Shown: one piece after another, positions 5,831 to 26,500 of the stretch
Position numbering within the stretch: position 1 is the stretch's first letter
How the letters are laid out: each line of letters opens with the position of its first letter
Assembly: GCF_947623445.1 (NCBI RefSeq)
Contig: NC_135248.1
Location: forward strand, 2,726,977 to 2,790,976
Length of the DNA: 64,000 bases
Direction of reading: 5' to 3'
Source of the DNA: Clavelina lepadiformis
Lineage: Eukaryota
Notes under the pieces: model-generated
Told to the model about the DNA's origin: nothing
Database searches by the model: none
The model's input: the letters and a program-made list of their open reading frames with translations, nothing else
Translations under genes and position numbers: made by a program

Positions 5831-6811
5831 ATGAACACCACAGATATTATGTCACATTTAGCAACGGCGGATTATAAAACAGAAGATAAGACTTTCTACA
5901 CCTCCAGCGCTATTACTACAATAAAGACTCGGACCAGGATTAACTTTGCTCCAAGCACAAGTACGTCAACGGGAAGTGTGGCAACGAACAATGCTTCTCA
6001 GTTTTGGGCATCAGAAATTTTCTATGGAGGATCCCACGTTCTGCAAGGCATCGTAATTATACTTTTGGTCTTAACCGCTTATCTGGCCTGTGTGACGTCG
6101 TTTTATCTGTACAAGTACCAGCAGCCCAAGCTCAAGCTCTCCAACTTCCTGCTGTGTTTAGCATCGATTTTGCTATTTGCACAGTGCTGCTGGTTCCAGC
6201 CTGAAGTGGTTATTACCTCGTACACTTACCAGTTTTGCATCGCTTACTCAGTCGTAAACATCATTCTGGCAACGGTTGCCAAAACTACCATATACGTTAT
6301 CCTGTGGGTTAGACAGAATTTCATCTACACCAATCCATTGCTGACGCTTGTAGGGGAACACTTCCGCGTAGTTGGAAAGATAGTTCTTTTTGGAATGCTC
6401 ATTTTCGCCGCTTTCCAGTTGGGGTCACTGATTGCAATCGTGCCAAAGGCTGTTCCGGGTGGATGCATTTTACCAAAACTCTTTGGATGTTTGATCGTAA
6501 TTACACCTTTGACGTTTTGCATTTCTTCTGTTTTCCAAGTTGCCCTCCTGCTGTTAACACTGTACCCTGTTTTGAAGCACATTCGCAAACACAGTAAAAG
6601 CTCCATCGGTGCGCACCTGCGTCCGGTAGCTATCAGGCTATGCGTGTGTACAGGGATTTGCGTTGCCACAGACACGTTGTTTTTAGTTGGCACCAGGATA
6701 GCTTCATGGCGCGCTCCTATTAACTTTATACCGGTATGCTATGCCTTTGACATTGCCATTCACATCGCAGTAACTTTGTGTTCGTTTGTTGATTATCAAC
6801 GTCGCCTTTAG
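5831..6811 (+). CDS. Intronless 326-aa ORF encoding a predicted seven-transmembrane membrane protein (orphan GPCR-like)
   Basis: A 981-nt uninterrupted ATG-initiated ORF in ~34% GC DNA is very unlikely by chance. The translation has seven hydrophobic segments of 20-25 aa (e.g. IVIILLVLTAYLACVTSFYLY, FLLCLASILLFAQCCWF, IVLFGMLIFAAFQLGSLIAIV, LIVITPLTFCISSVFQVALLLLTLY). It has an N-terminal N-glycosylation-type site (NAS) and basic residues in the predicted loops. No canonical DRY or NPxxY motif was found, so the GPCR family assignment is open. Confidence 0.45.
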   Translation: MNTTDIMSHLATADYKTEDKTFYTSSAITTIKTRTRINFAPSTSTSTGSVATNNASQFWASEIFYGGSHVLQGIVIILLVLTAYLACVTSFYLYKYQQPKLKLSNFLLCLASILLFAQCCWFQPEVVITSYTYQFCIAYSVVNIILATVAKTTIYVILWVRQNFIYTNPLLTLVGEHFRVVGKIVLFGMLIFAAFQLGSLIAIVPKAVPGGCILPKLFGCLIVITPLTFCISSVFQVALLLLTLYPVLKHIRKHSKSSIGAHLRPVAIRLCVCTGICVATDTLFLVGTRIASWRAPINFIPVCYAFDIAIHIAVTLCSFVDYQRRL

Positions 6812-9160: not shown

Positions 9161-9221
9161 ATGCACTTATATTTTTACATCGTGGTCTTTCTTATCACCG
9201 TGTTGCTGTACGCAGAAGCAG
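9161..9221 (+). CDS. Astacin-mosaic gene exon 1: start codon and signal peptide (MHLYFYIVVFLITVLLYAEA)
   Basis: ATG at 9161 followed by a 20-aa hydrophobic signal-peptide-like sequence, then a G|GTAGGC donor at 9222. The exon ends in phase 1, compatible with the next exon (G|GT = Gly). Confidence 0.5.
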
Positions 9222-9599
9222 GTAGGCTATAGTTTGTGATTATTTGATTTTAATGATTTAGTTTAGCGGTTGCAAGCGTGTAAATATGGAGTGTAATTGT
9301 TTCCTCTTGGTTTTGTTTGCTTTACACAGATGCGACAATAATAGCAGCTGTCGGAAAAGCGGTTTTACAAAAAGAGGCAATAAAATTGCAGCTGACTTAC
9401 TGTTTCCGTTTACTTGTTACTAGTAGCCTACTTATGGTAGAAAAACTTGAATGCCCACTGAGCACCAATTAGAAGACAAAAACGTTCACGTAATAAAAAT
9501 AGAAGCCGCCTTAGAATTGAAGCCGCCCTCGAATAGAAGCTGCACAAAACGTTCAAAAATAAAAAAATAGTAGCCGCGGTTTCTATTCAAGAAAATACA

Positions 9600-10290
9600 G
9601 TACCAAGAAAGAGATAGATTAAGAGAAGAAAAAGAGAAAAGTAAATGACTGGTTGACCTGCAAGTGTACGAAAAAAATGAAGAACTTTGGTTTAAAAAGT
9701 AATAACTAGGATATTTCTTTGCCTTTTAAGTTGATTTCATGCAGAGATTGCTCACGAAAAAATTTTTCATTTGTTAAATATAACCGAATATAAAAGCGGA
9801 TACCTTTTTAGTTGGTTGATTCTATTTTAAACCAGTTTTGGTTTAGGTAAATGCCCCAACGTGGAATGTGACAAAAAATGCAAAGATGAACATAAGGAAA
9901 AGGATGACAATGGTTGCACGACTTGCAGGTGTACGAAACAGCTGGGAGATTTACTTTTAACAGGTACTGTAACAGTTGGGCCTTTTCTTTTCCTCTTAAT
10001 GTGTAATGCGCAAACAGTAGTCAGCATGTTAGCAATCAACGTTATGAAGTTAGCTGCCACTATTTCACCGAAAAAATCGTGCGTTCAAAGTTTTTCTTCA
10101 CAATTTCTAGTTAACCTAACTTAAATGTTTTAACATAGTAATCTAAATCTAACTTCTAATCTAAATCTAACTTTAAGTAAACCCTAAATAACCAAAATCA
10201 AGGTTTTGCAAATCAATTCTCCTAACCGCCTATCTTGAAATATACTTTTTGTGACCTACTTTTGGTGAAATACTCACTCTATGAAGTTTA
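9600..10290. repeat. Segmental duplication, copy 1 (~0.65 kb; contains antistasin-like exon 2 and flanking intron)
   Basis: About 90% identical to 17420-18100 across the exon and both flanks (e.g. gaagaactttggtttaaaaagtaataact..., agttggttgattctattttaaaccagttttggtttag, aatctaaatctaactttaagtaaac). Confidence 0.8.
9847..9963 (+). CDS. Astacin-mosaic gene exon 2: antistasin-like cysteine-rich domain (GKCPNVECDKKCKDEHKEKDDNGCTTCRCTKQLGDLLLT)
   Basis: tttag acceptor at 9845-9846 and CAG|GTACTG donor at 9964. Cys spacing C-x4-C-x3-C-x11-D-x-NGC-x2-C-x-C fits the antistasin-like domain signature. Phase 1 in and phase 1 out. Confidence 0.6.
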
Positions 10291-10705
10291 GTGAATCAAC
10301 TTAACATAGCCTAGTTAATTAGACTATTTTCCATATTGGTTTGAGATTTCCAAGCATGCAGTTGCGGTGATGAGGCATTACAATCTCTGTGTAATTCTAC
10401 TACACTGTTTGACAAAAAATAATATTTACAAGCTGTTAGGGTTGTAAGATAACATCACTAACAACAAATAACAATAAGTTAAAAGGTTTTAACCAAGTGC
10501 TATGACCCAAACCGGGCAAATTTGTGCATTTCAATCACTATCTTGGTTAGTACAATACTATCTGTGAAAAGGTAAATAATTTAAGCAACATTGTTATGTT
10601 ATTTTATATATTTTGAAATTATTTGATGCTAGTCAAATATTTTGGTAGATTATTTCACTTTTGAATTGTTTTCCAAAATAAAAGTTTTGTTTCTTGCTTA
10701 CTCAG

Positions 10706-10849
10706 AAGCACAAATTAATTGGATAGATGACCAGGAAAAGTCTGGGGATGGTAGCCCAAGAGCTGCATCATCTGTTGTTAAAAAATGGACGAGAGATGTC
10801 ACAGCTGATGGTTATTACAGAATCCCCTACAATTACTCAGATGACATAC
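10706..10849 (+). CDS. Astacin-mosaic gene exon 3: start of astacin catalytic domain (EAQINWIDDQEKSGDGSPRAASSVVKKWTRDVTADGYYRIPYNYSDDI)
   Basis: ctcag acceptor at 10704-10705 and C|GTAAGT donor at 10850. Translation carries the astacin N-terminal W...IPY motif. Overlaps the + ORF 10642..10902. Confidence 0.75.
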
Positions 10850-11038
10850 GTAAGTCAAAAGCTTTCAAAATTGTTAGGGAGTTAGCAGCTCTTTCATCTT
10901 GATTTAATTTTAAGGCACTGATTGTTTAGACCTAAAGTGTACTGTACATATTTCCGGTGAGTAAGTCGGGGCCTGGAGGTCACAGTATTTTGATTTTTTA
11001 TCGCGCACTTGGTTGATTCATTTTCATGCTAATCCCAG

Positions 11039-11205
11039 ATTCTCGGCCTCAACACCGAGCTAACATTATCAAAGCTATTTCAATTCTCAACGCGCTGACT
11101 TGCTTAGAGTTCCAGCCAGCAACCCAAGTAGACATAAATCAGATGTATTTCATTGTTGATGAAGGATGTTGGTCTTACGTTGGGAGGCAAGGTGGTAAAC
11201 AGAAG
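11039..11205 (+). CDS. Astacin-mosaic gene exon 4: astacin domain (HSRPQHRANIIKAISILNALTCLEFQPATQVDINQMYFIVDEGCWSYVGRQGGKQK)
   Basis: cccag acceptor at 11037-11038 and AAG|GTGAAA donor at 11206. TCLEF and GCWSYVGRQGG match the astacin consensus TC(I/V)xF...GCxSxVGRxGGxQ. Confidence 0.8.
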
Positions 11206-11410
11206 GTGAAAAGGTTTCACAAGTTTACATTATTTACATTATCTTTCTTCACTGTTCTGTTATATTTTGAAACCTTTCGGGTATTTGGGTATTATAATGT
11301 ATCTTTGCTTCATTGCTTGTGTTCCATTATGAAACTCAAATCATAAACGCTCTCTTCAGTGACTTGAATTGATCCATCGAACACTAAATTAGTTTACTTA
11401 CTTTTGAAAG

Positions 11411-11546
11411 ATTTCTATTGACGACGGATGTCAGAGCGTAGGAACCATCCTGCACGAGATCATGCATGCATTGGGATTCTGGCACGAACAATCACGAAGC
11501 GATCGGAATGATTTTGTCAAAGTGTTAAAACGGAACATTGAATCTG
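11411..11546 (+). CDS. Astacin-mosaic gene exon 5: zinc-binding active site ([46 protein letters not shown])
   Basis: Contains the extended astacin zinc-binding motif HExxHxxGFxHEQxRxDRD verbatim. tgaaag acceptor at 11409-11410 and G|GTGGGT donor at 11547. Confidence 0.85.
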
Positions 11547-12662
11547 GTGGGTGATGATGGAATGTTGTTAAAATAATTTCCATATGTTAGAACAGGGGTT
11601 CTCAACCTTTTTTAAACACGACCCAATTTTTCTTCATTTTGGATGCAAGCAACCCAACATTTTGCTATACCATAAAATAGAAGGACTGCAATTAACTGTG
11701 ATTCCTCAAACAGACAGAAAATGTTACTTAATCACGCACAATCGTAATACACGATACCATGGCATGATATGTTGCAAGCAAAACATTAAATACTAATACA
11801 TAATAACAACATATTCGTCCAGCTTGCTCAAGCAAGACTTTCTTGAATGCACCACCCGTTCAAGAAAAGGTGCATTGTTTCTTTGGTGTTTCGTCATAAA
11901 ACATACTATGACACAACAAATGCTCATTAAAAACGTCACAGATTTTTTAACAATGGTTATGGCTTTGCTGGTTGATGACTAAGAACTAAAAAATTTGACA
12001 ACTAATAAACATTTTTGTGCAGTTTCAAGAAAGCTACGTCAAAAACAAAACCAAGTAGGCTTGTAAGAAATGCCCGGTGACCCATAGGTTGAGGACTCAT
12101 GCATTAGAAGTTTGGTAATTATAATTGTTGTTATAATTACTGGTGAACAGTTCCATACTTAGGAAAGACCACAAATAACGAAAAAAAACGGATTAAACAA
12201 CGCAATGTGAGCAGAAAACACTTGAAGACTAGCCCCACAACTGAGGCTTGGGCAGTGGTATAGTTAACAGGTTGTGTTCACGTAAAGATTTTATTCATTC
12301 AGTTTTAGCATGATTATTCGATTTTTAACATTATCTAAGCAATTAATAACACTGTCAAGTGTAATTTATATGTCCTGTACCACATGACATTTTATATCCA
12401 GCTGTGCACTTAACGTATTGTGTTGGAAAATTTTTCGTTATTCCTTAACCTACTCACCCCACGTTATCACCTATTTACTACACTTTAAAGAAATTTTTTT
12501 TATATTGCTGGTATGAAAAGTTTACCAATGTTATAGATCACATGCAATTGCACAGTTGTTTTTTGACCAAGTTTAATATTAATACATTCAAGATTTGTGA
12601 TGTTCATTTTGTATTGACTGAAAAACTACTTATTTCACTGCTTTTTATTAAAATTTTGCCAG

Positions 12663-12795
12663 ACAAGAAAGACAACTTTTTCAAGATAAGCTCGTCCGTT
12701 CTTGAATCGTATAACTCTGCATATGATTATAAATCTGTCATGCACTACAATGGCTACTCGTTCTCTAAGAATGGAAAACCAACCTTAACTAATGT
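12663..12795 (+). CDS. Astacin-mosaic gene exon 6: Met-turn region (DKKDNFFKISSSVLESYNSAYDYKSVMHYNGYSFSKNGKPTLTN)
   Basis: YDYKSVMHY...FSKNGKPT matches the astacin Met-turn consensus YDYxSIMHYxxxAFSxNGxPTI. ttgccag acceptor at 12661-12662 and consensus GT|GTGAGT donor at 12796. Confidence 0.8.
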
Positions 12796-13004
12796 GTGAG
12801 TTGCGTTGCTGACCATGCTCAAATTTACTTATCAGATAATTACCTTTAGTTGTTACCAAGACATTACTGTAGTCTTTGACGTAATCAACTCACTTGTGTT
12901 CATGTGTTTTTGAATGTATAACAATGTTAAAATTACTATTTTTTACCGTTTATTAATGTCCTTAATTCCAAAGTTATTTTCAAATACTACATTTCAACCT
13001 GCAG

Positions 13005-13229
13005 ACGAACCGGAAAAGCTGTGGTCAATCAAAGAATCATGCTTTCTCGTGAGGACCAACTACAGCTTCGAGCAATGTATAACTGCAAAGGTTTACGGAA
13101 AGTTCCGGAAACGACAGACTGCATGCACCCTCTGGACCAAGGGGCAAGTTATAGGGGCACAGCTTCAGTGACGAAAAGTGGGTACACCTGTCAGAGATGG
13201 GATCGCCAATCACCACATTCTCATTATTT
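13005..13229 (+). CDS. Astacin-mosaic gene exon 7: end of astacin domain ([21 protein letters not shown]) plus first half of kringle 1 ([37 protein letters not shown])
   Basis: cctgcag acceptor at 13002-13004 and TT|GTGAGT donor at 13230. The IGQRxxLSxxDIxxxxxLYxC tail of astacin is followed by the kringle N-terminal pattern (C..YRGT.S.T.SG..CQ.W.SQ.PH.H). Confidence 0.75.
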
Positions 13230-13459
13230 GTGAGTTAAGTTTCGTGTAAAAAGTCGTGTTGCATTACAAGAGCATACTGTATGATATATATTTACAAATA
13301 ATATTTTTACTTGATTCTATTGTGAAGACTTAGTACCACAGTTTAATTCTTTACCTTTATGTTGCTATGAATTCTAATTTTGTTCAGAAATTTTTTTTCT
13401 GTTTGGTACGTGGAATATCATACGTTTTCAGTAAAAAGCTTTCATTAATTTTATTACAG

Positions 13460-13599
13460 TGATCCATCTCACATAACTGGAGCTGGTTTAGAGAATAACT
13501 ACTGTCGTAATCCTAATCTCAAGAACAAGCCATGGTGCTACAGCACGAACTTGAGAAGGAAATGGGAATACTGCTCCATTCCAATTTGTGACAATCCAG
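13460..13599 (+). CDS. Astacin-mosaic gene exon 8: second half of kringle 1 (FDPSHITGAGLENNYCRNPNLKNKPWCYSTNLRRKWEYCSIPICDNP)
   Basis: ttattacag acceptor at 13458-13459 and G|GTTCCG donor at 13600. NYCRNP...PWCY...WEYC..P.C is the kringle C-terminal consensus. Confidence 0.75.
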
Positions 13600-13856
13600 G
13601 TTCCGGTTGATAAATGTTTTGCAACACTTTTATCTTTTTATTGATAAAAAGTTTTCAAAAAATTCCCAAGTTGTTTTGCGGAAAACCAAAATCCGCATTT
13701 GTAGTTACAAGTAAGTTTAAGTAAAGTGTGGAGTGTAATTAATTCAAGTTTTTCTGCAACAATTTAAATTCAGAAACATTTTCTAAAGTCGTTTAAGTAT
13801 CAATAACATGAGAAATGAGTATGACCCAACACTAAGCAATGATCAACTTCTTTTAG

Positions 13857-13965
13857 TCCGAGAAATTTTCTCGCCCCACTCACCCAGAAACAATCGTGGT
13901 TTCTGGTCTGATTGGTCGGAATGGGGGCAGTGTAGAGCCACTTGCGGAAGTGGGTACCAGTACAG
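13857..13965 (+). CDS. Astacin-mosaic gene exon 9: TSP1 repeat 1, first half (VREIFSPHSPRNNRGFWSDWSEWGQCRATCGSGYQY)
   Basis: WSxWSxWxxCxxTCGxG thrombospondin type-1 signature. cttttag acceptor at 13855-13856 and AG|GTGGGT donor at 13966. Confidence 0.7.
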
Positions 13966-14347
13966 GTGGGTGCAACATAAAAATAGTTGCTCATTATTTT
14001 TATTCCAAGCTTTTTTATATGTGTTATGAACTACAGTAGCACAAGGAGCACCAAAATCTATATTACAGTAGGTTTTCTATATCAGCTACTTTTATTTATT
14101 TATTTTGATTTTCTTTTTCTTACTCGTAATTGATTAATAACAGTAGCTTTCATTTCACCAGCACAATTTTGTCGTAATTTTAATTCACTATGAAATGTCT
14201 GGCGTAATTACCTGACACCAACCTACAAATTTATGACTTTTTAATCATCTAATCATTCTAATGGCTCACTACTTTTATCGTAACCTTAGCAATTTTCCAA
14301 TGAATATCCCACCTGGATATTTATAATGACACAAATATTCTTTTCAG

Positions 14348-14451
14348 GACTCATCACTGCATCGGAGCTGATGTTGGATCTGCTCAATGTCCTGGAGAAT
14401 ATTGGGAGAGCGTTCCTTGTCGTGTCCCCTGCGCTAGTCGTCCTGCATCAG
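14348..14451 (+). CDS. Astacin-mosaic gene exon 10: TSP1 repeat 1, second half (RTHHCIGADVGSAQCPGEYWESVPCRVPCASRPAS)
   Basis: ttttcag acceptor at 14346-14347 and G|GTGAAG donor at 14452. It supplies the remaining TSP1 cysteines. Phase is continuous with exon 9 (AG+G = Arg). Confidence 0.6.
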
Positions 14452-14535
14452 GTGAAGACATCTTATAATCCACTTGTGCTTCTTGCAGGAATGGGTCGCT
14501 AGGAACATCACATCCACCGACTTGTTTGTTCTCAG

Positions 14536-14691
14536 GAGACTGGCAGACCTGGTGGTCCTGGTCAGCGTGTGATGCAGTGTGCGTGCAAGGAAACAACGGA
14601 CATCGATATCGTGTGAGGGCTTGCAGCAGTGAATACTGCGAAGGAGACACAATAGAAGAAGAAATGTGCTTTCAACCAAGCTGTCCGACCT
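14536..14691 (+). CDS. Astacin-mosaic gene exon 11: TSP1 repeat 2 (GDWQTWWSWSACDAVCVQGNNGHRYRVRACSSEYCEGDTIEEEMCFQPSCPT)
   Basis: Complete TSP1 cysteine framework. ctcag acceptor at 14534-14535 and T|GTAAGA donor at 14692. Overlaps ORF 14526..14726. Confidence 0.7.
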
Positions 14692-14982
14692 GTAAGAAAA
14701 ACTATAGATTGCAGAAACAGATTTAAGGGTCAAGCTAACTGACTTGCATTCCAAGAGTTTTCTTCCAAGATCATGTAATGTTAATTCAGTCATTGTGAGA
14801 AACGTAATGTATGAAACTCAGGTTGTTGAAAGCCTCTGTTACAAGTGCAACTGTTTTGTTACGGGTTTTTATTCGACAAACAATCATTTACTCATAAAGG
14901 CTGAGTTTATCCGTGTAAGAATCAATCACACTAAACCCGATCTTGTGTTTTCTTATTGTTTGAGTCGATTAAAAATTTGCAG

Positions 14983-15088
14983 ATGATGGCAATGATTGCT
15001 TTAACAAGAACGATCCTGCTGCATACAGAGGGACCCTTGCTTTTGCAATGACTGGTGCGACGTGCATCCCATGGAAAAGAACAATAAT
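14983..15088 (+). CDS. Astacin-mosaic gene exon 12: kringle 2, first half (YDGNDCFNKNDPAAYRGTLAFAMTGATCIPWKRTI)
   Basis: tttgcag acceptor at 14981-14982 and AT|GTAAGC donor at 15089. Carries the kringle C..YRGT...TG..C..W pattern. Confidence 0.65.
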
Positions 15089-15155
15089 GTAAGCGAAATT
15101 GTCCAGAGCAACACCCAAATAGAACATCAAATTTTATAGAGTTCTGTATCTGCAG

Positions 15156-15289
15156 AAATATCGATACTTATCCAAACGCTGACTTGCGTGAGAATTACTG
15201 CCGTAACATGGGTAACAGCGATGGTCTTGTTTGTTTTGTTAAGAAGAAAAGGACAAAACGTTGCGCACCTCCAAAATGCCGGAATAATG
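15156..15289 (+). CDS. Astacin-mosaic gene exon 13: kringle 2, second half (INIDTYPNADLRENYCRNMGNSDGLVCFVKKKRTKRCAPPKCRNN)
   Basis: ctgcag acceptor at 15154-15155 and G|GTTCGT donor at 15290. The NYCRN...C...C..P.C kringle tail is present, though more diverged than kringles 1 and 3. Confidence 0.6.
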
Positions 15290-15555
15290 GTTCGTTGACA
15301 GATTAACAAGTTTTTATGACGTAAAGCGTATATATTAACGTACCTTATTGGTCTATGACTCGGACAGTTTTATTACCCTTGAATACGAGGTAAATAAGAC
15401 ATTGTTTATGATAAGTGGTGTCTCAACGAGTCTCTATAGTTGAAATCGTCAGTGGAAAATATTTCGTTTCATTTTTTTCACCAGAAATTCCTTATTATGT
15501 GAATATGAAATTAGTCAATGTGTTTTGTTAATTTTGTCATGACATGACTTTGCAG

Positions 15556-15717
15556 AAGCGTATTGGTCCGACTACTCCGACTGGTCAGCGTGCACAGTGA
15601 CATGTGATGGAGGCTTCAAATATCGAACCAGAACTTGTATTCGAGGAGCCATCAGTGAAGGTTCCTGCATCGGTGACGTAGTGCAAAGCAAAGAATGCAA
15701 CACCAATGAATGCGGCG
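15556..15717 (+). CDS. Astacin-mosaic gene exon 14: TSP1 repeat 3 (EAYWSDYSDWSACTVTCDGGFKYRTRTCIRGAISEGSCIGDVVQSKECNTNECG)
   Basis: tttgcag acceptor at 15554-15555 and G|GTAAAG donor at 15718. Full TSP1 signature. Overlaps ORF 15597..15785. Confidence 0.7.
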
Positions 15718-15875
15718 GTAAAGTTTACACATCATTTAAAACAAGTTTTAAGATAGTGGAAGGTTATGTTGGATTAACATTTTAAGCATGCATCAGGTGG
15801 ACCATACTTTTTAAATCAAAATTGTAGCCTATTTTCTTGCTAAAGTTTTATCATCTGAATTTTGCATTTCAACAG

Positions 15876-16056
15876 ATGGTACAATTGCTCTTCCGGTTGC
15901 CCCAGTTACCCATACCCCACCCTCTATACCCGCATCGACTGGTAGTCGTGGTTGTGTGGTGTTGGGTGAACCACAACTTTACAGGGGTACAGTTTCAAAG
16001 ACGTTCACCAGCTGTCTTTATTGGGACTCACAGACACCCCATGCTCATGATTATAC
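15876..16056 (+). CDS. Astacin-mosaic gene exon 15: linker plus kringle 3, first half (DGTIALPVAPVTHTPPSIPASTGSRGCVVLGEPQLYRGTVSKTFTSCLYWDSQTPHAHDY)
   Basis: caacag acceptor at 15874-15875 and AC|GTGAGT donor at 16057. The kringle pattern is in a different frame from the annotated ORF 15837..16067; the kringle frame was chosen by homology and phase continuity. Confidence 0.7.
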
Positions 16057-16252
16057 GTGAGTTTTGACACAAAATTCTTTCTCAAATTGCTCAAGAATGT
16101 ACAAAGCTTTGAAATGTGATTTTATAAACCAGAATAGCGTTTAAAGATTAATGTTATCGAGTATTTTTGAGTAGTGACTACAGCCCTACCATATTTTTAT
16201 TACTTTGTATTCGCACGTAATCGAGCATGGGATAAGTTGTGTCAATTCGCAG

Positions 16253-16395
16253 CACTCTGGAAAAATTTGTCTCTGCCGGACTGACCGAAAATTATTGCCG
16301 GGCGCCAGAAGCAGATGATTCATGGCCTTGGTGCTTAGCTTTGCTCTCCGGAGTCGCAACAAAATTATCTTGCGATGTTGCCGCCTGTGAGCCAG
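16253..16395 (+). CDS. Astacin-mosaic gene exon 16: kringle 3, second half (TLEKFVSAGLTENYCRAPEADDSWPWCLALLSGVATKLSCDVAACEP)
   Basis: ttcgcag acceptor at 16251-16252 and G|GTAACG donor at 16396. NYCR.P....PWC....SC....C kringle tail. Confidence 0.7.
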
Positions 16396-16479
16396 GTAAC
16401 GTCGAAAACTAACATATTGTGTCAGTGTTGTTCAAAGTACTTTGGATTTTGTGCCTCAGTTATGCCATGAAGCTGCATT

Positions 16480-17300
16480 TGCTGGTAATTGCACGAGTAC
16501 CGTCTTAAAATAAAAGTCGTTCACAGCAACCTTTCGAGTATTTCTTTTGGCTGTATAGAGGCCAGCCGTTGTACAGCCTGGCAGAACGGAGCGAGAAAAT
16601 TCCGTTACAATACTAACCGCCCTCTTCGTCATAACAGGAGGCCAAATTTGCGATACAGCCAAAAGGCTTTTATTTTAAAGCACATGTACGCTGAAGTGGT
16701 GGGTTCGATTCCCGCCCGGTTCGATCGTGACGAAAAAAGTGTTATTTGGTTTAGTCTGATGATGGCAGGTAACGTTAAATTTGGTTAAAACAATTCATCA
16801 ACAAATATCTGCTGCTAGATTAGGCTACAATGACCTTTTTGTAACTGTCCATATATGTGATTCAGAAGTAGATATTCGCAATTCGTTGAATTAATTAGCG
16901 CTTCCTTGCGCCTGAAGCAAGAAATGTGTGACCACGTGAAGTTATTGTATATAAGACGGTAAACGAATAGAACTTAAATATACAAAAAAATATCAAAAAG
17001 GAAGAACTTCGTGTAAATTTTTGCCAGTTTCTAGTTTTTCCATGCAAAATTCATACAAATCCTAAATCATTCCAACATGATCTCTTGTTAGATTTTTTGC
17101 TATTGTACATTGCTTTTGTTTGCCAAAATATGTTGCAAATTATCCACTCTGCCTTCAGTCAAGCTAATGGCGCAACACGCAGAAGCGCATGGACTCTATG
17201 GCAGAGGTACTGGGTTCGATTCCAACCAAGTTCGCCCTTGTTTCGTGGAAGGTTGACGGAGATAAGTCATCATAGCACTCTCTACGCTAATCGCTAATCG
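16480..17300. repeat. Cluster of tRNA-derived SINE-like fragments in the astacin gene intron
   Basis: tRNA T-arm-like boxes: GTGGTGGGTTCGATTCCCGCCCGG at ~16695 and GGTACTGGGTTCGATTCCAACC at ~17205. The annotated ORFs here (16489..16788, 17085..17297) have no protein-like features. Confidence 0.4.
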
Positions 17301-17419
17301 CTATTCAACCAATTGCACTCAATTGCATCTTCTCTTTTCAGCTTCACTCGTTCCGTTCCAGTCATCGCGGAAAAAACAGGTTCGAAAATCTGATAATAAT
17401 TAATTTGTCCTTTATCAGA

Positions 17420-18100
17420 GGTTTTCGATTTTCGATTTTCGATTCGATTTTCCAAGTAAGAGATGGCAATGGCTGCTTGACCTGCAAGTGTTCGAAAAAA
17501 ATGAAGAACTTTGGTTCAAAAAGTAATAACTAAAATTTTTCTTTGCCTTTTAAGTTGATTTCATGCAGAGATTGCTAACGAAAAAATTTTTCATTTGTTA
17601 AATAATACCGAATATAAAAGTGGATGTAATTTTTTAGTTGGTTGATTCTATTTTAAACCAGTTTTGGTTTAGGTAAATGCCCCAACGTGGAATGCGACAA
17701 AAAATGCAAAGATGAACATAAGGAGGATGTCAATGGTTGCACGACTTGCAGGTGTACGAAACAGCTGGGAGATTTACTTTTAACAGGTACTTTAACAGTT
17801 GGGCCTTTCTTTTCCTCTTAATGTGTAATGTGCAAACAGTAGTCAGCATTTTAGCAATCAACGTTATGAAGTTAGCTGCCACTATTTCACCGAAAAAATC
17901 GTGAGTTCAAAGTTTTTCTTCACAGTTTCTAGTTAACCTAACTTAAATGTTTTAACATAGTAATCTAAATCTAACTTTAAGTAAACCTTAAATAACCAAA
18001 ATCAAGGTTTTGCAAATCAATTCTCCTAACCGCCCATCTTGAAATTATATGGGCTGCGTAACCTACTTTTGGTGAAATACTCATATGACAAATTTTAATT
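17420..18100. repeat. Segmental duplication, copy 2 (paralogous to 9600-10290)
   Basis: Direct sequence comparison with copy 1. Includes an upstream Cys-rich stub reading DGNGCLTCKCSKKMK. Confidence 0.8.
17673..17786 (+). CDS. Candidate exon 17 of the astacin-mosaic gene: second antistasin-like domain (GKCPNVECDKKCKDEHKEDVNGCTTCRCTKQLGDLLLT), the duplicated copy of exon 2
   Basis: Near-identical to 9847-9963 apart from a 3-nt in-frame deletion, with the same tttag acceptor and CAG|GTACTT donor. Its entry phase (1) matches the exit phase of exon 16. It could equally be a duplicated pseudo-exon. Confidence 0.35.
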
Positions 18101-18149: not shown

Positions 18150-19480
18150 TAAAAACCGCGAATGCTGGCGGTAATTGTTTGAATATGAGCGAGGACGGTT
18201 GATGGTTGATAACTTGTTTTACTTCTGCTTCGATGGATGAGTTTTCATTTCTCAAATTTGCGTGACTATGCTGTTAGTTGCTTGATTCTGTCTATACAAA
18301 TTACAAAATTATGAAGTTCCCATTTTATTTATTATAACACAAAGGCTTTTGCCTTCGGGCAAAGCTTACTGAATGTTACATAGCACTGTAGTAACCAGTG
18401 AAATCGATCACATGAAAAAAGGAAAGATTGAAAACATTACATCAGTATTTATATGTAACACACCAGTTCAAGCGAGGAAATTATCTGACGTCATTAAGGA
18501 AAACTCAAGTCTGGTAAACAGCTGAATTACAGGATTCTAAATTAAATTTCAAACATCTCAAAAACAACTCGTGAGTCGTGACGTAATCGTCACATAGCCT
18601 ACCTACCCAGAGTAAAGCTTGCCTGAAATGAAATTGAAGGCAACCTTTACTCGACAAAATTATGTCTTTGATTAAAATATTTATCACGGACATTAAAACA
18701 AGAATTTAGTACAGTACAATGACAGAGTTCGGTAAATATAACAAATATCGATACACCGTTTCACTTGAAATGCAAAACATGAGACATAAGCTGACAGAAG
18801 TGTCGCATTCCCTTGCCTGTCGAAGGTAAAAAAATGAGCGATCACGTCTGCGTGTGTCGTTCTGCGGCTGTAGCAAGCCTTGTTCGCGGTAGAGATATGC
18901 AGTTTGTTGCGATGTCCAGTGGACTTTGTTTCTTGATGCGTAAAAAATATATACAATAGTTTGCTCATGCTCTTGGAGATGTATAACACGTTAGTTAGGC
19001 GATCAAAACTTCATCACATCAACCAGGTATCAATGTCATTAGTGCTGTTGCTGTCGAATTGGTCCTGTTGCCTATATTGGAGATAGAATTTCTTGAAAGC
19101 TTCCTCGTTGACTAGCGTTCGTAGTTGGCTGATCTTGCTGTTGAAACTTGATCATCAAAACTTCATAAATAGCTGGTAACATTCTTTCTCGTTCAATGTG
19201 CAACTAACTCAGCAATTTCGAACTTACTCGGGCACCAATTTATGACAAATTTATAAAACGATGATGGTTGAATTGATATATATATTGTTTTTCTTCTGAC
19301 TTAATGAGAAGGTTGTTATTTCTCAAACGGCGTGCTTCTGCTGTTTGTTTAATTTCTGTCTATATATATTGCTAACTGATAATGTTGCCATTTTGATTAT
19401 TATAGGACACAAAGGTTTTCACCTTCGGGCAAAGCTTACTGAATGTTACATAGCGCTGTAGTAACCAGTGAGAACGGTAA
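18150..19480. repeat. Two ~330-bp homologous segments in tandem orientation (18150-18480 and 19250-19480), ~1.1 kb apart
   Basis: Shared blocks, e.g. acacaaaggcttttgccttcgggcaaagcttactgaatgttacatagcactgtagtaaccagtga at 18340 versus 19405. Confidence 0.6.
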
Positions 19481-19599
19481 AAAGGAAAAAGATCGTAAAC
19501 ATTACAACAGTATATACCTTGCAAGTCCATTTCGGCGTATAAACTTGAACTCCAAGTGTTTCTATAGGTTTTTTAAAAGAAAACAATTTGTAGGTTATA

Positions 19600-21465: not shown

Positions 21466-22677
21466 TCTACTGCTAATTTTAATCTAATAAACCGAAAACT
21501 GGAACTTTTGCTCCGTCATTCTTTTATCTCATTTATAAATCAGCGCCAGTTGTGCAGCTCCGCTTCATCGTCTAGCGGACATTTTCTTTAGCAAATACGA
21601 TGTATATAGACGCTGTCATTCTGATGCTCGAATAATTCGTCGTAATTGGTTTTCATTTAGAGTTAGCAAGAGAAACTCGGAAACCATTTCGTTGTTCCGC
21701 TCAAACCAGTTTCAAACGTTTCAGTTGAATCGTAATTCACAACAATATACTATACTATTGTGTAGGGCTGTGGCATTGTTAAGCAATAGGAGAGCTTGTC
21801 GCAAGTTTTCTAGCAAGAATCTGGCACCTTTTTGCTTCGAGTCAACCTTGGAGCAAGTTTCGTGCGTTTATTTAATCAGCTGAGGAATTTGCGCGAGATT
21901 TCTCGAATCTTCACTGCGCGTGTTCGTTCCATAATTTCATTCTTTTACCTCGTGCAGTTGAGGTGGTTGGTTGGTGGTTATGAGTAGTTTAGCATTTACA
22001 ATACAATGGATGCAATACAATGGATTTACAATAAAGCGGAGTTCAGTTTGGTGTGACTGGTTTGAAGTAACAACTTGTCTATGCTGATTTGAAACGTCAC
22101 TGCTTGGCTTAAGGCCCATATTTGTTGGCCGATTTGTCTGACTTGTTTAATAACGATAAGTTTTTGGTCAGGACTGCAAGTTGTATTTTGTTTGATGCTG
22201 AAACACAGCTCGCGCTTGTTGAGTTTTGTATTTGTTTGACCTTTGTTGTACACTTCCATGTTCTTGTTGTTAACCTTTGTTCCTGCTTTGTTGCAACTGC
22301 TCTCTGCGCGCGCTTTAGCGTCTTGGTCTCGTTCAGGGCCGGATTAAGACGAAACTGGGCCTGATGCTGCAGCGCAAAAACAGGCCTATTTTTTCTAGGC
22401 ATTGGTACATATGCATTCGACACTCTGACTCCACCGTACACGCGTAATCAGACCGACCAAAGAGCCTTTATTGCTTTCGACGCAGTCAGCCAAATTTTAA
22501 TGAACATGAACAATAATAACGACGTGTTATCGTAAAAACTCGAGAGTAACATCAGGCTATGTAACACCAACACAATTCAATACCAATATTGCCTGAAAAG
22601 CGGAGTTAATGAAGAAAAGGCTAATCCAGATCAACTTAACGTTGGCATATTGTCAATGCTGCGCTAGTGCTGCTTAC

Positions 22678-25197
22678 TTATACTACTGTTTTTCGAGCCT
22701 TAGCAAGCGCGAAATCTTCGATCATGTCAGTGCAGTCAAGGCTGCTCAGCACCTCATGTTCAATGCTCATAAGCGCCAGCATGTTTAGCCTTTCCTCCCT
22801 CATCGAAGACCGCAGCTCTCCTTTGACTATTCCCAGTTTTGAGAAGCTCCGCTCGCCGGAGGCATTAGACACCATCAAGCACAGATAGATGCGCAAAGCA
22901 ATCTCGACGTTTGGAAATGTTTGAGAAAGGTTCAACGACGACAAAAGCTTGTACATGGTAAGCTCTGCTGACTCGTTCACACTCACCGATTTCTGGGTGC
23001 GCATAAATGCAGCAAACTGTATGAGCTCAGCCACCAGCGTGTCTTCCAAGTCATCTGGATACGAGGAAACGAGATTTTGAGCTTTATTCTCGATCTGCTT
23101 TATGCTCAATGACGTTAGCTCCGAAAGAAATCCGAATGTTGTAGATATATCCTCATACGCCTTCATTCGCTTTTCCAGTTCAGCTAACAGTCTGTCGATC
23201 ATGACCAGATATATATGGGTTTTGAATGTTTCCCTAGGGGTGAGGTTTTCTTCGTTTGCAGCTCCTTCATCAGGCATTCGCTTTCGCTTACGGCCTCGAC
23301 GTTCTTCAGCCTTGTATTCGCCGTGAGGAACCTTTTCGATCGCCATCTGCTCATACACGTCAAATCTGTCCCGTGCAAATTGAATCGTGTCGACCAGTGA
23401 TGCCAATAAACTAGTTGCCGTATTCAGACTGACTGTAGGGTCTTGGAGGCTAATGCTCGTACTGTTGAGACGGCATAGGATATCGTTCCAGGCAGTCGCC
23501 ATAACTGCAGTCTCAAGTTCGTCCATCCTGCGCGAAAATCCGTCGGCCTGGTTTCTCGTATCGGCCTTCTGCTCCTTATCTGCCGCAAGCTCATCCAGGA
23601 CTTCTTGAATGCTCTTCCACCCTTCTACTAGCGCTTTGACAGCATCTGCACGTTCACACCATCGGGTTCCAGACAAACCTTTGAGCGTTAATGTGCAGCG
23701 ATTCTTCAGTTTCTGCCAGCGATATGTCGATTCAGACAGGAAAACGTATAGTCCATTGACAAAATGAAAAAACCTGGTACAGCCAGCGCAGCTATTAACA
23801 GCCTGGTCTCCTACCAGGTTTAAACTGTGGTTGCAGCATGGAATAAAAGCAGCATATTTACATTCTCGCTTCACAATTGCCTGGACACCGTTGTACCGTC
23901 CTGACATGTTTGACGCATTGTCATACGACTGGCCTCTGCAGTTAGTAACATCCAAGCCATTTTCCTTCAGAAAGTTCAGAAGTATGCTAGCCATGTGCGT
24001 AGCGGTGTGTCTCATCATAGGCAAGAATGTCAGGAACCGTTCAACTGGACCCAACGGCAGAACATATCGAATAACAATCGTTAGCTGGTCGAGGTGTGAT
24101 ACGTCAGGTGTAGAGTCAATCGAGACAGAGAAATACTTCGCCTTCTTGGCTTCTTTCAGGATGGTGTCCTGCACCTTTTGTCCCATGAGCTGCACCAGCT
24201 CCTCGCAAATTGTGGATGACAAATAAGAAATGTGACCTTTCCCGCAGTTCGCATATTTTCTAATATGGCTAGCCAGCAGAGTATCGTACTCCGCCAACAA
24301 CTCAATGATGCCAAGGTAGTTACCATTATGAGGGGAACCTATGATCTCATCCGCGCCCCTTATAGCAAGGCCACGCTTAGCTAGGAATATCAGAACGTCG
24401 ATGAGCCGCTTTACAATCTGGCGCCAGTAACACCGCTCTTCCTCGACCTGTTTAGCGGCTAGGTAGTCAACACGACCGGCCTCCCTCTGTCGGCTCGCAA
24501 AAGACAACATAGCCTTGCGATGACCATCGCTGCTTTCATGCATTTTTATTCTGGATTCGCCTGTCCTCCAATTGTCGAAACCGCCGGATACGAACTTGGT
24601 TGCTTGAACAGCATTACCACCGAACAACTTGCATGCAAAGCAGAACACCTTCCCGGTCGAAGGCGAGTAGCACAACCATTGTCTATAGGATTTTTCACCA
24701 TTGAGTGGATGCGTACGCACGAAGAAGGTCTTAGTGCATCGACGTTGGAATGATTCACCTAGGTATTGTCTGGCGCTCTCTTCAAACATCGATTCAGTGT
24801 GTTGGCAGTGTTTTGAACCTTTCTTGGCCCAATATTCTCGAGTGTCAGCGTTGATTTTACCCCACTGTCCTAAATCATTGGTGATATCCTCCAGCGTTTG
24901 CGCCAGTGCTTCGCCAGTGATAGCGTCTCCTTTCACCTCTGCTCTCTCCGCTGAACTTTCCCGCTCTTTATCCTCTCTTTCCTCATCAGGTTCATCTTGC
25001 TTGGCCTGGTCTTCAGGAGCGCTCGAATTCGCAATCGCATCCGACGCAGGCAATTGAGACGAAGCTGCTCGCATTCCAAAGTATGAACTCAGTTTTGGAA
25101 TTTTCGCCAGAAGCTTTTCTTGTTCTGCTGCTTCTTTCCTTTTCTTTTTCGCTTTATCCCATCCACTGAGTTGAGACGCCATAGCAAGCGTGCACAA
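22678..25197 (-). CDS. hAT transposase (ZMYM1-like: TTF-type zinc finger + DUF4371-like core + hAT C-terminal dimerisation domain), 839 aa, uninterrupted
   Basis: A single 2.5-kb intronless ORF. The TTF-type zinc finger region reads CTKTFFVRTHPLNGEKSYRQWLCYSPSTGKVFCFACKLFGG. The C-terminus (ALRIYLCLMVSNASGERSFSKLGIVKGELRSSMREERLNMLALMSIEHE) matches the hAT dimerisation domain consensus. Plus-strand ORFs inside it (23102..25057) are antisense artefacts. Confidence 0.85.
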   Translation of the reverse strand: MCTLAMASQLSGWDKAKKKRKEAAEQEKLLAKIPKLSSYFGMRAASSQLPASDAIANSSAPEDQAKQDEPDEEREDKERESSAERAEVKGDAITGEALAQTLEDITNDLGQWGKINADTREYWAKKGSKHCQHTESMFEESARQYLGESFQRRCTKTFFVRTHPLNGEKSYRQWLCYSPSTGKVFCFACKLFGGNAVQATKFVSGGFDNWRTGESRIKMHESSDGHRKAMLSFASRQREAGRVDYLAAKQVEEERCYWRQIVKRLIDVLIFLAKRGLAIRGADEIIGSPHNGNYLGIIELLAEYDTLLASHIRKYANCGKGHISYLSSTICEELVQLMGQKVQDTILKEAKKAKYFSVSIDSTPDVSHLDQLTIVIRYVLPLGPVERFLTFLPMMRHTATHMASILLNFLKENGLDVTNCRGQSYDNASNMSGRYNGVQAIVKRECKYAAFIPCCNHSLNLVGDQAVNSCAGCTRFFHFVNGLYVFLSESTYRWQKLKNRCTLTLKGLSGTRWCERADAVKALVEGWKSIQEVLDELAADKEQKADTRNQADGFSRRMDELETAVMATAWNDILCRLNSTSISLQDPTVSLNTATSLLASLVDTIQFARDRFDVYEQMAIEKVPHGEYKAEERRGRKRKRMPDEGAANEENLTPRETFKTHIYLVMIDRLLAELEKRMKAYEDISTTFGFLSELTSLSIKQIENKAQNLVSSYPDDLEDTLVAELIQFAAFMRTQKSVSVNESAELTMYKLLSSLNLSQTFPNVEIALRIYLCLMVSNASGERSFSKLGIVKGELRSSMREERLNMLALMSIEHEVLSSLDCTDMIEDFALAKARKTVV

Positions 25198-26209
25198 AAC
25201 GCAGCTAAATTTGTAAATTGTGGAACCGTAAAATTTATCGCATTAACTTGAAATCTTCCGTTACAATAAACACAACGCCGTATATTTAGCCTACGTCACA
25301 GTGCAAAAAAAAAACATTAGCAATTGTCTTAGAATTAAGGCAATCGCTAGCGTCCAAGTGAACCCCAATGCTTTCCATCATTTTTTGTTATAAACTGACA
25401 CTGGTTTCCATCATTTTTTGTTGTGAACCGGCAGTTGTTTGCACGGTGTTAGCTTGTGAATCGGCAATGAAACAACATTGAACTCAACAATAATGATTGC
25501 TAACTCTTTTCCCAACCATAATGAGTACTAATCTTACTGCCTTAACCTAATCTATTCCTAAGGTTTAGCCTAACTCAGTGGTTCTCAACCGCCGGTCCGC
25601 GAAGTACCGTATCTTACTTTCTGCCAAGCTAATTTTAATCTGGAATCATAAGCATTGCAAAGTTGATACTTCCTGTAAAACTCATTTTACGCTTGGCCGA
25701 TTTACAGCAGTAGGCTAAAACTGGCATAGCCTATCTCTCCTTCGTTGATACAGCAGAACTGTTTAATAATAAAGGTTAACCTTCCGATGACCTAGATTTT
25801 GTGCCGTTTATGATTGTTTCGTCATAAACTGCGTCTAGCTTTCAAAAAGTTTTGTAATACAAGGTCATTCTTCACTTTTCAGATGCTGCAATAGCTTGTC
25901 CTGTTAAACTACAGAAGGATTAATATGGAATCAACGAACCAACAAGTGTATTTTAACAAGAAGGAAAAAACTAAGACTTCTGAAACAAATAATTCTCAAA
26001 ATGGAAATGAACCAAGTATCAGTAGGTGCAAATGTAAACTACGAAAAGGGCATATGCAGATAAGTTGAGTGTCACAGAGGGAAGTAAGAAACGAAAAGGG
26101 GAATTTGTCAGGCAATACAATAAAAATACTTGGAGCTTGGTTTTACAATAGTTCCGGGTAGTGAACAATCGTCACGGCCCTAATGTTTGGTGTGCTCCCA
26201 AATTCTGCC

Positions 26210-26500
26210 AAATGACGTTATGAAACCTTCTAAAGTTGTTCGTCACTTTCATTCAAAGCACAACAATCTTGAAGGCAAGCCACTTGAATATTTTGGACGA
26301 ATATTCTCTGATATGAACGATTAAAAAAAGCAAATGAAAAGATGACGACTACCGAAAAATCCTTTCTTCATGAATCCTATCTAGTTTCTCTACGAATAGT
26401 TAAAACCAAAAAAAGCATACACGATTGGGGAAGAGTTAATAAAGCCGTGCATCTTATCTGCGGCTGAAGTAATGAAGGGCCCTGAAACAGCTCGAAAAGT
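26210..26500 (+). pseudogene. Frameshifted fragment of a second hAT-type transposase (GTF2IRD2/ZBED5/Charlie-like N-terminal region)
   Basis: Plus-strand translation gives NDVMKPSKVVRHFHSKHNNLEGKPLEYF in one frame, then EKSFLHESYLVSLRIVKTKK, and after a +1 shift HTIGEELIKPCILSAAEVMKGPETARKVL. These are the characteristic MKPSKL.RH..TKH / ESY.VS..IAK..KPHTIGE.LI.P motifs of this family. Stops and frameshifts mean it is not coding. Confidence 0.5.

Follow-up and report, generated by a model that had tools for sequence, protein, structure and literature searches.

We analysed a window of 64,000 nucleotides from the colonial ascidian Clavelina lepadiformis (NCBI RefSeq assembly GCF_947623445.1, contig NC_135248.1, positions 2,726,977 to 2,790,976 of the forward strand); positions below are those of the window. 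The DNA is AT-rich and eukaryotic, with a GC content of 0.32-0.46 across the window. Between positions 9161 and 16412 of the + strand it carries an astacin gene with 16 GT-AG coding exons and an uninterrupted product of 744 amino acids (aa). The exons were chained from stop-free segments in the three + frames, requiring AG acceptors, GT donors and phase agreement. They lie at 9161-9221 (E1), 9847-9963 (E2), 10706-10849 (E3), 11039-11205 (E4), 11411-11546 (E5), 12663-12795 (E6), 13005-13229 (E7), 13460-13599 (E8), 13857-13965 (E9), 14348-14451 (E10), 14536-14691 (E11), 14983-15088 (E12), 15156-15289 (E13), 15556-15717 (E14), 15876-16056 (E15) and 16253-16412 (E16). An exact-sequence look-up showed that the product is identical to RefSeq XP_076825734.1, which is named "apolipoprotein(a)-like isoform X1". 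We put at roughly 80% the probability that this interval is the gene for XP_076825734.1 and that it encodes the secreted, latent zymogen of an astacin-family (M12A) zinc endopeptidase. An initial annotation of the same DNA, made from its letters alone, had proposed a single mosaic secreted astacin gene, and both the continuous 16-exon reading frame and the identity to the RefSeq protein bear this out. Its assembly of seventeen phase-continuous GT-AG exons was essentially right, although the coding exons number 16.

The 3' end and stop codon, reported as missing in the initial annotation, are present. Exon 16 is not spliced at 16395/6; it passes through the supposed donor (GT at 16396) and ends in ...CEPGNVEN and a TAA stop at 16410-16412, leaving without support the terminal mini-exon at about 16458 that would have encoded only VMP and a stop. 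The ...CEPGNVEN C-terminus is common to both RefSeq isoforms of the protein and to the GenBank model of a second C. lepadiformis assembly. An AATAAA polyadenylation signal follows at 16509-16514 (+), 97 nucleotides (nt) past the stop, and is the sole AATAAA or ATTAAA within 16401-17000. A tblastn search of the window 3' of 16412 at E <= 10, using the model and the related proteins P0002, P0003, P0004 and P0125, found neither a relic of a fourth kringle nor any further astacin, kringle or TSP1 exon. The sole match was a duplicated antistasin fragment, described below, with none in the remaining 46 kb after it; this result ruled out both the VMP-stop terminal exon and a tandem paralogue within the window. 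The second RefSeq isoform, X2 (P0001, 731 aa), is the same as X1 from exon 2 on and has no signal peptide; comparison of the P0001 sequence with the genomic sequence at 9677 places its alternative first coding exon (MKNFGLK-) at 9677-9698 (+).

Exons 3 to 6 and the start of exon 7 (10706-13100, +) encode the remainder of the pro-segment, the predicted activation site and the astacin domain, which was recognised by Pfam Astacin (PF01400; 199.3 bits), Foldseek and phmmer. The zinc site reads HEIMHALGFWHEQSRSDRN, with ligands H178, H182 and H188, the catalytic E179 and the family-specific E189, and the consensus HExxHxxGxxHE is satisfied by HEIMHALGFWHEQ at H178-Q190. Residues H178, E179, H182, G185, H188 and E189 are invariant both in an alignment of 25 astacins and in an alignment of the four ascidian proteins. 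The Met-turn with its Tyr is present (S233-V-M-H-Y237), as are the Cys pairs Cys129/280 and Cys151/170. Thus, the astacin domain that was initially described as complete does have its zinc site, SVMHY Met-turn and Cys pairs, while the RxDRD ending attributed to it is DRN here. In an AlphaFold2 model the catalytic domain has a predicted local distance difference test score (pLDDT) of 80-92, and Foldseek gave target-normalised template modelling scores of 0.90 to the fish hatching enzymes HCE-1 and ZHE1, 0.85 to BMP1 and 0.83 to crayfish astacin, with matches to meprins as well. By sequence, meprin beta is the nearest relative with a solved structure (phmmer E = 1e-36). As modelled, the domain has the metzincin/astacin fold, and the product is predicted to be a zinc-dependent endopeptidase.

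The N-terminal part of the protein carries both a signal peptide and a pro-segment with an aspartate-switch motif. Exon 1 (9161-9221, +) contains the start codon and the signal peptide, MHLYFYIVVFLITVLLYAEA with G as the next residue, recognised as a hydrophobic leader and by the match to XP_076825734.1. Its mean Kyte-Doolittle hydropathy over aa 3-17 is 2.5, A-x-A precedes the predicted cut, and similar hydrophobic leaders open the paralogues and the Phallusia orthologue. The pro-segments of animal astacins have only the motif FXGDI in common, the Asp of which replaces the zinc-bound water in what is called the aspartate switch (PMC9848320). In the window protein, D55 of the motif L53-G-D55-L lines up with the EGDI Asp, a residue conserved at 90% or more among the 25 astacins, and is predicted to contact the zinc. 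D55, R78 and W87 are invariant across the four ascidian proteins. The predicted activation cut, between R78 and A79, follows a single invariant Arg, with no furin-type RxxR. It falls nine residues ahead of a conserved Trp that we take to correspond to residue 10 of mature crayfish astacin. On activation of an astacin the new N-terminus becomes buried and bound to the family-specific Glu that follows the third His of the zinc site (PMC9848320).

The catalytic domain is followed by an array of extracellular modules, all on the + strand. Bit scores for these modules come from piecewise Pfam scans, with cut-offs of 34.3 bits for Kringle (PF00051), 21.6 bits for TSP_1 (PF00090) and 21.2 bits for Antistasin (PF02822). 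Kringle 1 takes up the rest of exon 7 and exon 8 (13101-13599; 90.9 bits, pLDDT 77-93) and aligns with plasminogen kringles. After it come TSP1 repeat 1 in exons 9 and 10 (13857-14451; 34.0 bits), with WSDWSEW and CRATCGSG, TSP1 repeat 2 in exon 11 (14536-14691; 24.0 bits), with WQTWWSW, and kringle 2 in exons 12 and 13 (14983-15289; 42.3 bits). TSP1 repeat 3 in exon 14 (15556-15717; 40.9 bits), with WSDYSDW and CTVTCDGG, precedes a Pro-rich linker and kringle 3, which occupy exons 15 and 16 up to the stop codon (15876-16412; 59.8 bits). With every module over its cut-off, Pfam confirms the order kringle/TSP1/TSP1/kringle/TSP1/kringle given in the initial annotation, and a scan of the full-length protein returned Astacin, three Kringle stretches and three TSP_1 stretches.

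A kringle typically spans about 80 residues, with six Cys paired 1-6, 2-4 and 3-5 and an NYCRNP core. Each of the three kringles has six Cys, and Foldseek places them on plasminogen and hepatocyte growth factor (HGF). Kringle 2 is divergent, with a deleted loop and LVC replacing PWC; its counterparts in paralogue P0003 and in Phallusia have the same deletion and also lack PWC. Lysine-binding kringles, such as those of plasminogen, need a DxD anionic pair. Kringle 1 reads N-L-K at this position and kringle 2 reads G-N-S, so neither has the pair; kringle 3 reads E-A-D-D and possibly binds lysine. The hallmark of a TSP1 repeat is a WxxWxxW / CSxTCG core with six Cys. TSP1 repeats 1 and 3 contain WxxW and Cxx[ST]CxxG motifs, the consensus sites for C-mannosylation and for O-fucosylation by POFUT2.

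The boundaries of these modules follow a regular pattern of intron phases. The signal-peptide exon ends in phase 1, the antistasin exon, TSP1 repeat 1 (E9 and E10), TSP1 repeat 2 (E11), kringle 2 (E12 and E13) and TSP1 repeat 3 (E14) are phase 1-1 units, and kringle 3 (E15 and E16) begins in phase 1. Class 1-1 is the pattern that Patthy describes for shuffled extracellular modules (PMC8001218). The exon-shuffling signature of symmetrical phases claimed for this locus therefore holds for its class 1-1 boundaries. It does not extend to the "2-2 modules" of the same claim, since the phase-2 introns are internal to domains, one at an equivalent place in each kringle and one within TSP1 repeat 1. 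No intron marks the 5' boundary of kringle 1. Since exon 7 encodes the final 27 residues of the astacin domain as well as the first half of this kringle, kringle 1 does not form an exon pair of its own.

Exon 2 (9847-9963, +; phase 1-1) encodes a six-Cys antistasin-like knot, C23-C49, and then the aspartate-switch motif. The last Cys of the knot is at most five residues from L-G-D55-L-L-L, and, as the knot is located between the signal peptide and the switch, it is part of the removable pro-segment. Its match to Pfam Antistasin is borderline (22.1 bits, E = 2.2e-4) and covers the full 26-residue repeat (1-26/26). The match arises solely when the 40-aa module is scanned alone; the full-length scan gave no Antistasin match even at E <= 1. 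The Cys-rich antistasin-like module of the initial annotation is upheld to this extent, as a borderline match of the isolated module and not as a complete inhibitor domain. Among 147 astacins retrieved, a six-Cys module whose end lies 127-130 residues ahead of the zinc motif was found in astacins of Clavelina, Styela and Ciona. Module-bearing tunicate astacins differ in their C-terminal parts, which have ShK domains, no accessory domain, or TSP1 and FG-GAP-like repeats. The modules of the paralogues score 21.8-24.1 bits on Pfam Antistasin, those other than the module of the amphioxus protein P0324 score 10.9-25 bits overall, and of the 16 complete modules scanned, 13 have Antistasin as their top Pfam match. 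A fold like that of the CS-alpha/beta defensins, which shares the 1-4, 2-5, 3-6 Cys pattern, was also considered and ranked below antistasin; Pfam Defensin_2 was matched once, at 14.5 bits. Judged on these profile matches, "antistasin-like" is the best available label for the knot. In a further protein, P0109, an antistasin-like knot and a kringle both lie in the pro-region, upstream of an LYEGDIVL switch, and several ShK modules and one EGF domain come after the catalytic domain.

A copy of the antistasin exon is also found downstream of the gene. An orphan duplicate of 9635-10241 (about 0.63 kb) lies at 17459-18045 (+) with 91-99% identity, and comprises a decayed remnant of a first antistasin exon, an intron, the antistasin exon copy at 17673-17786 and part of the next intron. 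Within the duplicate the exon is no better conserved than the intron, and both C. lepadiformis assemblies contain it. The exon copy, which scores 25.0 bits on Pfam Antistasin, had been considered as a second antistasin exon that might be spliced in; it belongs to an orphan duplicate past the 3' end of the gene and lies outside the protein. Of an ancestral first antistasin exon, still intact in paralogue P0002 with its two tandem antistasin modules, 9623-9706 and 17459-17530 each retain just the 3' half. The in-gene remnant at 9623-9706 translates to ...NDWLTCKCTKKMKNFGLKS, and the first exon of isoform X2 falls inside it. The orphan copy reads ...NGCLTCKC, where the in-gene copy has decayed to ...NDWLTCKC. 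A GAAAATCGAA-type microsatellite lies upstream of the orphan copy, and a pair of 85-nt direct repeats, 87% identical, lies downstream of the duplicate at 18337-18421 and 19407-19491. Stretches at 16700-16760 and 17180-17260 look tRNA-like by eye, and ARAGORN calls no tRNA in them. The 85-nt repeats and the tRNA-like stretches are probably repeats of the short interspersed element type.

We propose the following scheme for the latent zymogen. The signal peptide would be cut after A20 (A-E-A20) and the protein secreted. The pro-segment, G21-R78, would cover the cleft, with D55 taking the place of the zinc-bound water, keeping the zymogen latent, and the disulfide knot would serve as a folded cap or handle of the pro-segment. 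A trypsin-like protease would then cut between R78 and A79, whereupon the new N-terminus would tuck in and pair with E189 to give the active enzyme. The kringle/TSP1 tail may dock the enzyme on substrates in the extracellular matrix, the tunic or the egg coat, and the initial suggestion of a matrix-targeted enzyme remains a reasonable one.

Several observations weigh against this interpretation. The switch motif is L-G-D-L and not F-x-G-D-I, and the cut between R78 and A79 is placed only from the Trp spacing and the invariance of the Arg. The RxDRD region reads QSRSDRN, its final Asp being Asn. The antistasin module and the linkers have pLDDT below 50 in the whole-protein AlphaFold2 model, which is uninformative on the fold and placement of the knot. 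Profile searches of the PDB with the module gave nothing significant: a narrow profile reached hirustasin at E = 3.7, and a broad one gave insignificant defensin and pacifastin-like matches at E of at least 0.011. The RefSeq models for the locus are themselves predictions, and the GenBank annotation of the second assembly, GCA_961645235.1 (the allele L001), splits the locus into two models, CAK8683027.1 and CAK8683026.1, of 147 aa and 482 aa. L001 has ATA instead of the exon-1 ATG (L001 5563-5565, window 9161-9163) and D194N in the RxDRD motif, which there reads SRSNRN. Given DRN and these two L001 differences, function may be relaxed or polymorphic. Finally, the zinc ligands are lost in two relatives, Clavelina P0246 (XP_076825876.1) and Ciona P0248 (XP_026691063.1), where the corresponding sequences are RELMHALGVWKE and SRVLMFSLGMYYE. 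These two are predicted from their sequences to be protease-dead paralogues. Both retain the kringle/TSP1 array, and this scaffold may matter apart from catalysis.

A first alternative is that the gene is decaying or non-catalytic, either drifting to a pseudogene or encoding a protease-dead kringle/TSP1 scaffold. The fourth kringle kept in P0003, Phallusia and Ciona is lost here, the first antistasin exon has decayed, DRN stands in place of DRD, and P0246 and Ciona P0248 lack zinc ligands. The alleles, which are 98.3% identical across the gene, differ at the start codon and at D194 and show 24 nonsynonymous and 18 synonymous differences. We nevertheless consider decay clearly unlikely. All 16 exons are open in both alleles, and the catalytic and structural residues of the window allele are all intact. 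DRN is shared with astacin-kringle proteins of starfish and of the acorn worm Ptychodera. The L001 allele also has AAG in place of an in-frame upstream TAG, a compensating change that opens the upstream reading frame used by the GenBank 147-aa model. The dN/dS between the alleles is 0.36 and not about 1, with a lower value for the pro-segment and catalytic part (0.006/0.023). These comparisons fit a gene that is moderately constrained and varies notably between alleles, and are a poor fit to a neutral pseudogene. The L001 differences could represent a variant or null allele, or they could be assembly errors. The L001 allele also has a two-codon insertion in kringle 3, and about 575 extra bases in intron 1 (L001 5704-6280, window position about 9302).

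A second alternative, raised in the initial annotation, is a bifunctional protease and protease inhibitor, with a working canonical inhibitor of trypsin-like or factor-Xa-like proteases that acts in the zymogen or, once the pro-peptide is released, dampens the activating protease. The module does exceed the Pfam Antistasin cut-off, activation is predicted to follow a single Arg, so that the activator is likely trypsin-like, and Lys occupies the P1-equivalent position in one module only, the additional first one of paralogue P0002. We regard this alternative as very unlikely, and the claim does not stand as made. Antistasin-type inhibitor domains have ten cysteines in five disulfides (PMC7851590, PMC6265900), whereas only six Cys, corresponding to the second, six-Cys sub-domain, lie between the signal peptide and the switch Asp. 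The reactive loop of hirustasin, in its complex with kallikrein, reads V27-H28-C29(P2)-R30(P1)-I31-R32-C33(P3') (PMC3014083). The window segment V-E-C28-D29-K-K-C32 aligns, in a non-significant match, to hirustasin V27-H-C29-R30-I-R-C33, which places Asp29 at the position of the P1 Arg30, where a basic residue would be expected and where Asp is a poor fit to the S1 pocket of a trypsin-like or factor-Xa-like protease. The P1-equivalent residue is likewise Asp in module 2 of P0002, in P0003 and in amphioxus, and it is Ser, Glu or Thr elsewhere. The module also lies in the part of an astacin that is normally discarded (PMC9848320), and the sole module retained across the family is the one adjoining the aspartate switch. 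A latent secreted zymogen, and not a bifunctional protease and inhibitor, is the best reading of the protein.

It is extremely unlikely that a short antistasin/astacin gene and a separate kringle/TSP1 gene have been mis-merged here, as the split into CAK8683027.1 and CAK8683026.1 might suggest: the 147-aa model runs on past exon 3 into its intron (intron 3) and the 482-aa model begins at a Met within the astacin domain, so that both cut the catalytic domain; a failed prediction is best explained by the loss of the exon-1 ATG in that assembly; the single exon 7 bridges the astacin domain and kringle 1; collinear proteins of full length occur in Ciona, in Phallusia and as three paralogues in Clavelina; and the locus has one stop codon and one AATAAA.

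To our knowledge, the astacin pro-segments described so far are essentially unstructured peptides. An antistasin-type knot in the pro-segment of astacins from invertebrate chordates (amphioxus and tunicates) seems to be an undescribed feature; astacin pro-segments are said to share FXGDI alone, yet those of amphioxus and tunicates bear a conserved disulfide knot. We speculate that the knot, fused to the aspartate switch, is a new device for latency or regulation in these animals, although we think this unlikely on present indications. With a conserved acidic residue in its reactive loop, the folded knot might fasten the pro-segment to the catalytic domain, for example via the S1' pocket, which prefers Asp in some astacins, or, once released, inhibit a protease that is not trypsin-like. 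If true, either variant would link activation of the zymogen to a second proteolytic system.

Other features of the window lie outside the astacin gene. The interval 22333-26750 (4.4 kb) has a GC content of 0.44-0.455, compared to about 0.37 around it, and is absent from L001. It contains an intact 839-aa open reading frame (22678-25197, - strand) with DUF4371 and hAT dimerisation domains, and appears to be a polymorphic insertion of a hAT-type transposon that has probably been active recently. Three adjacent open reading frames at 38860-40964 (- strand), with Tnp_P_element helix-turn-helix, TNP-like GTP-binding insertion and RNase H C-terminal domains, are a frame-broken copy of a P-element/THAP9-type transposase. 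At 50500-51435 (- strand), a 311-aa open reading frame combines an FCS-type zinc finger with a SAM domain at its C-terminus and probably represents the final exon of a Polycomb-group gene of the polyhomeotic/SCM-like type. Upstream of the astacin gene, a single-exon open reading frame of 326 aa at 5831-6811 (+ strand) resembles a multi-pass membrane protein by eye and had no Pfam match at E <= 0.001.

The pairing of astacin with kringle had been thought undescribed, a view that does not hold: proteins with this pairing occur in many invertebrate phyla, and a 2023 review of astacins lists KRING and TSP among the accessory domains (PMC9848320). Homology searches and precomputed domain assignments gave proteins with both domains in oysters and mussels (the bivalve proteins also having CUB, MAM and EGF domains), amphioxus, Saccoglossus, Ptychodera, Glandiceps, starfish, a brittle star, corals, anemones, a nemertean and an annelid. 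The full collinear astacin/kringle/TSP1 layout was found in the Clavelina paralogues P0002/P0125 (70% identity), P0003 (54%) and P0246, in CAB3263474.1 of Phallusia mammillata (44%), and in XP_026691060.1 and XP_026691062.1 of Ciona intestinalis. This ascidian family thus has four genes in Clavelina, two in Ciona and one in Phallusia. Literature searches combining astacin with kringle, astacin with antistasin, and Ciona with kringle and metalloprotease found no paper on the family, and only the domain list of the review. What looked like a striking mosaic is an annotated and conserved ascidian astacin with a widespread domain pairing; its family is already in the databases, uncharacterised, and includes predicted protease-dead members. 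Ciona knock-outs and expression atlases make both the role of the family and that of the pro-segment knot testable.

The RefSeq names "apolipoprotein(a)-like" and "plasminogen-like" reflect only the similarity of the kringle arrays, and the full-length Pfam scan of the window protein gave no match to Trypsin or PAN; in the plasminogen/apolipoprotein(a) family the kringle array is followed by a trypsin-like serine protease domain, and plasminogen also has a PAN domain. Confusion between paralogues and epaktologues has been discussed previously (PMC3927612), and the name "apolipoprotein(a)-like" is an instance of it. The closest counterparts of the window protein are the other members of the ascidian family (XP_026691060.1, CAB3263474.1, XP_076813917.1, XP_076825989.1 and XP_076825876.1), which are 39-70% identical to it over nearly their full length. 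They share the signal peptide, Cys-rich pro-module, Asp switch, astacin domain and kringle/TSP1/TSP1/kringle/TSP1/kringle order, and their kringles match by position. They differ mainly at the ends: P0003, the Phallusia protein and Ciona P0250 have a fourth, C-terminal kringle that the window gene has lost, and P0002/P0125 ends after TSP1 repeat 3 and has two antistasin modules.

Single-kringle astacins, such as Acropora "nas-4-like", a Saccoglossus protein and Acanthaster "BMP1-like", have the kringle directly after the astacin domain and show the best identity in the catalytic domain (42-45%). In contrast to the ascidian proteins, these cnidarian, hemichordate, echinoderm and nemertean astacins have pro-segments that are not Cys-rich, FEGDI, a furin-type RRxR and no TSP1 repeats. 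In a crude neighbour-joining tree built from 198 columns of the catalytic domain with 100 bootstraps, the ascidian family joined two astacin-TSP1 proteins of Clavelina and one Ciona astacin that has no accessory domains (91% bootstrap), and the cnidarian, ambulacrarian and nemertean astacin-kringle proteins formed a separate clade (100% bootstrap). Orthology of the catalytic domain and kringle 1 to the cnidarian/ambulacrarian astacin-kringle clade was considered and is rejected by this tree. The association with a kringle looks independent in the two groups, that is, epaktologous in the sense of PMC3927612.

The amphioxus "zinc metalloproteinase nas-7-like" XP_078589981.1 (P0324) shares with the window protein the signal peptide, an antistasin repeat directly before its switch, LYQGDMVL, the astacin domain and a kringle. 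On Pfam Antistasin the P0324 module reaches 32.3 bits, and its loop, C-D-K-x-C, has Asp at the P1-equivalent position as in the window protein. P0324 differs in its single kringle, its lack of TSP1 repeats and its two ShK-like modules at the C-terminus. The same six-Cys pro-module is found in the Clavelina astacin-TSP1 protein P0104, and an antistasin-type pro-module is common to the ascidian family, amphioxus and other tunicate astacins. With the leech inhibitors antistasin and hirustasin (MEROPS I15) the window module shares the spacing C-x4-C-x3-C-x11-C-x2-C-x-C, which corresponds to their Cys5-10 with the reactive loop. Unlike them, it is without Cys1-4, has Asp and not Arg at P1, and is located in the pro-segment of a protease.

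Among described proteins, the closest relatives by domain content are the Tasts, tunicate astacin-TSP1 proteases found on Ciona sperm and implicated in vitelline-coat penetration and metamorphosis (PMC6353882). The window protein resembles them in combining astacin with TSP1 and in its restriction to tunicates. Its identity to the Clavelina astacin-TSP1 proteins, whose own orthology to the Tasts is putative, is 43% in the catalytic domain and about 29-32% across the aligned part; the Ciona Tast sequences were outside our tree. The kringles set the window protein apart from the Tast architecture. The Tasts have two to three TSP1 repeats, no kringles and no detected signal sequence (PMC6353882), whereas the window protein has a signal peptide and three kringles.

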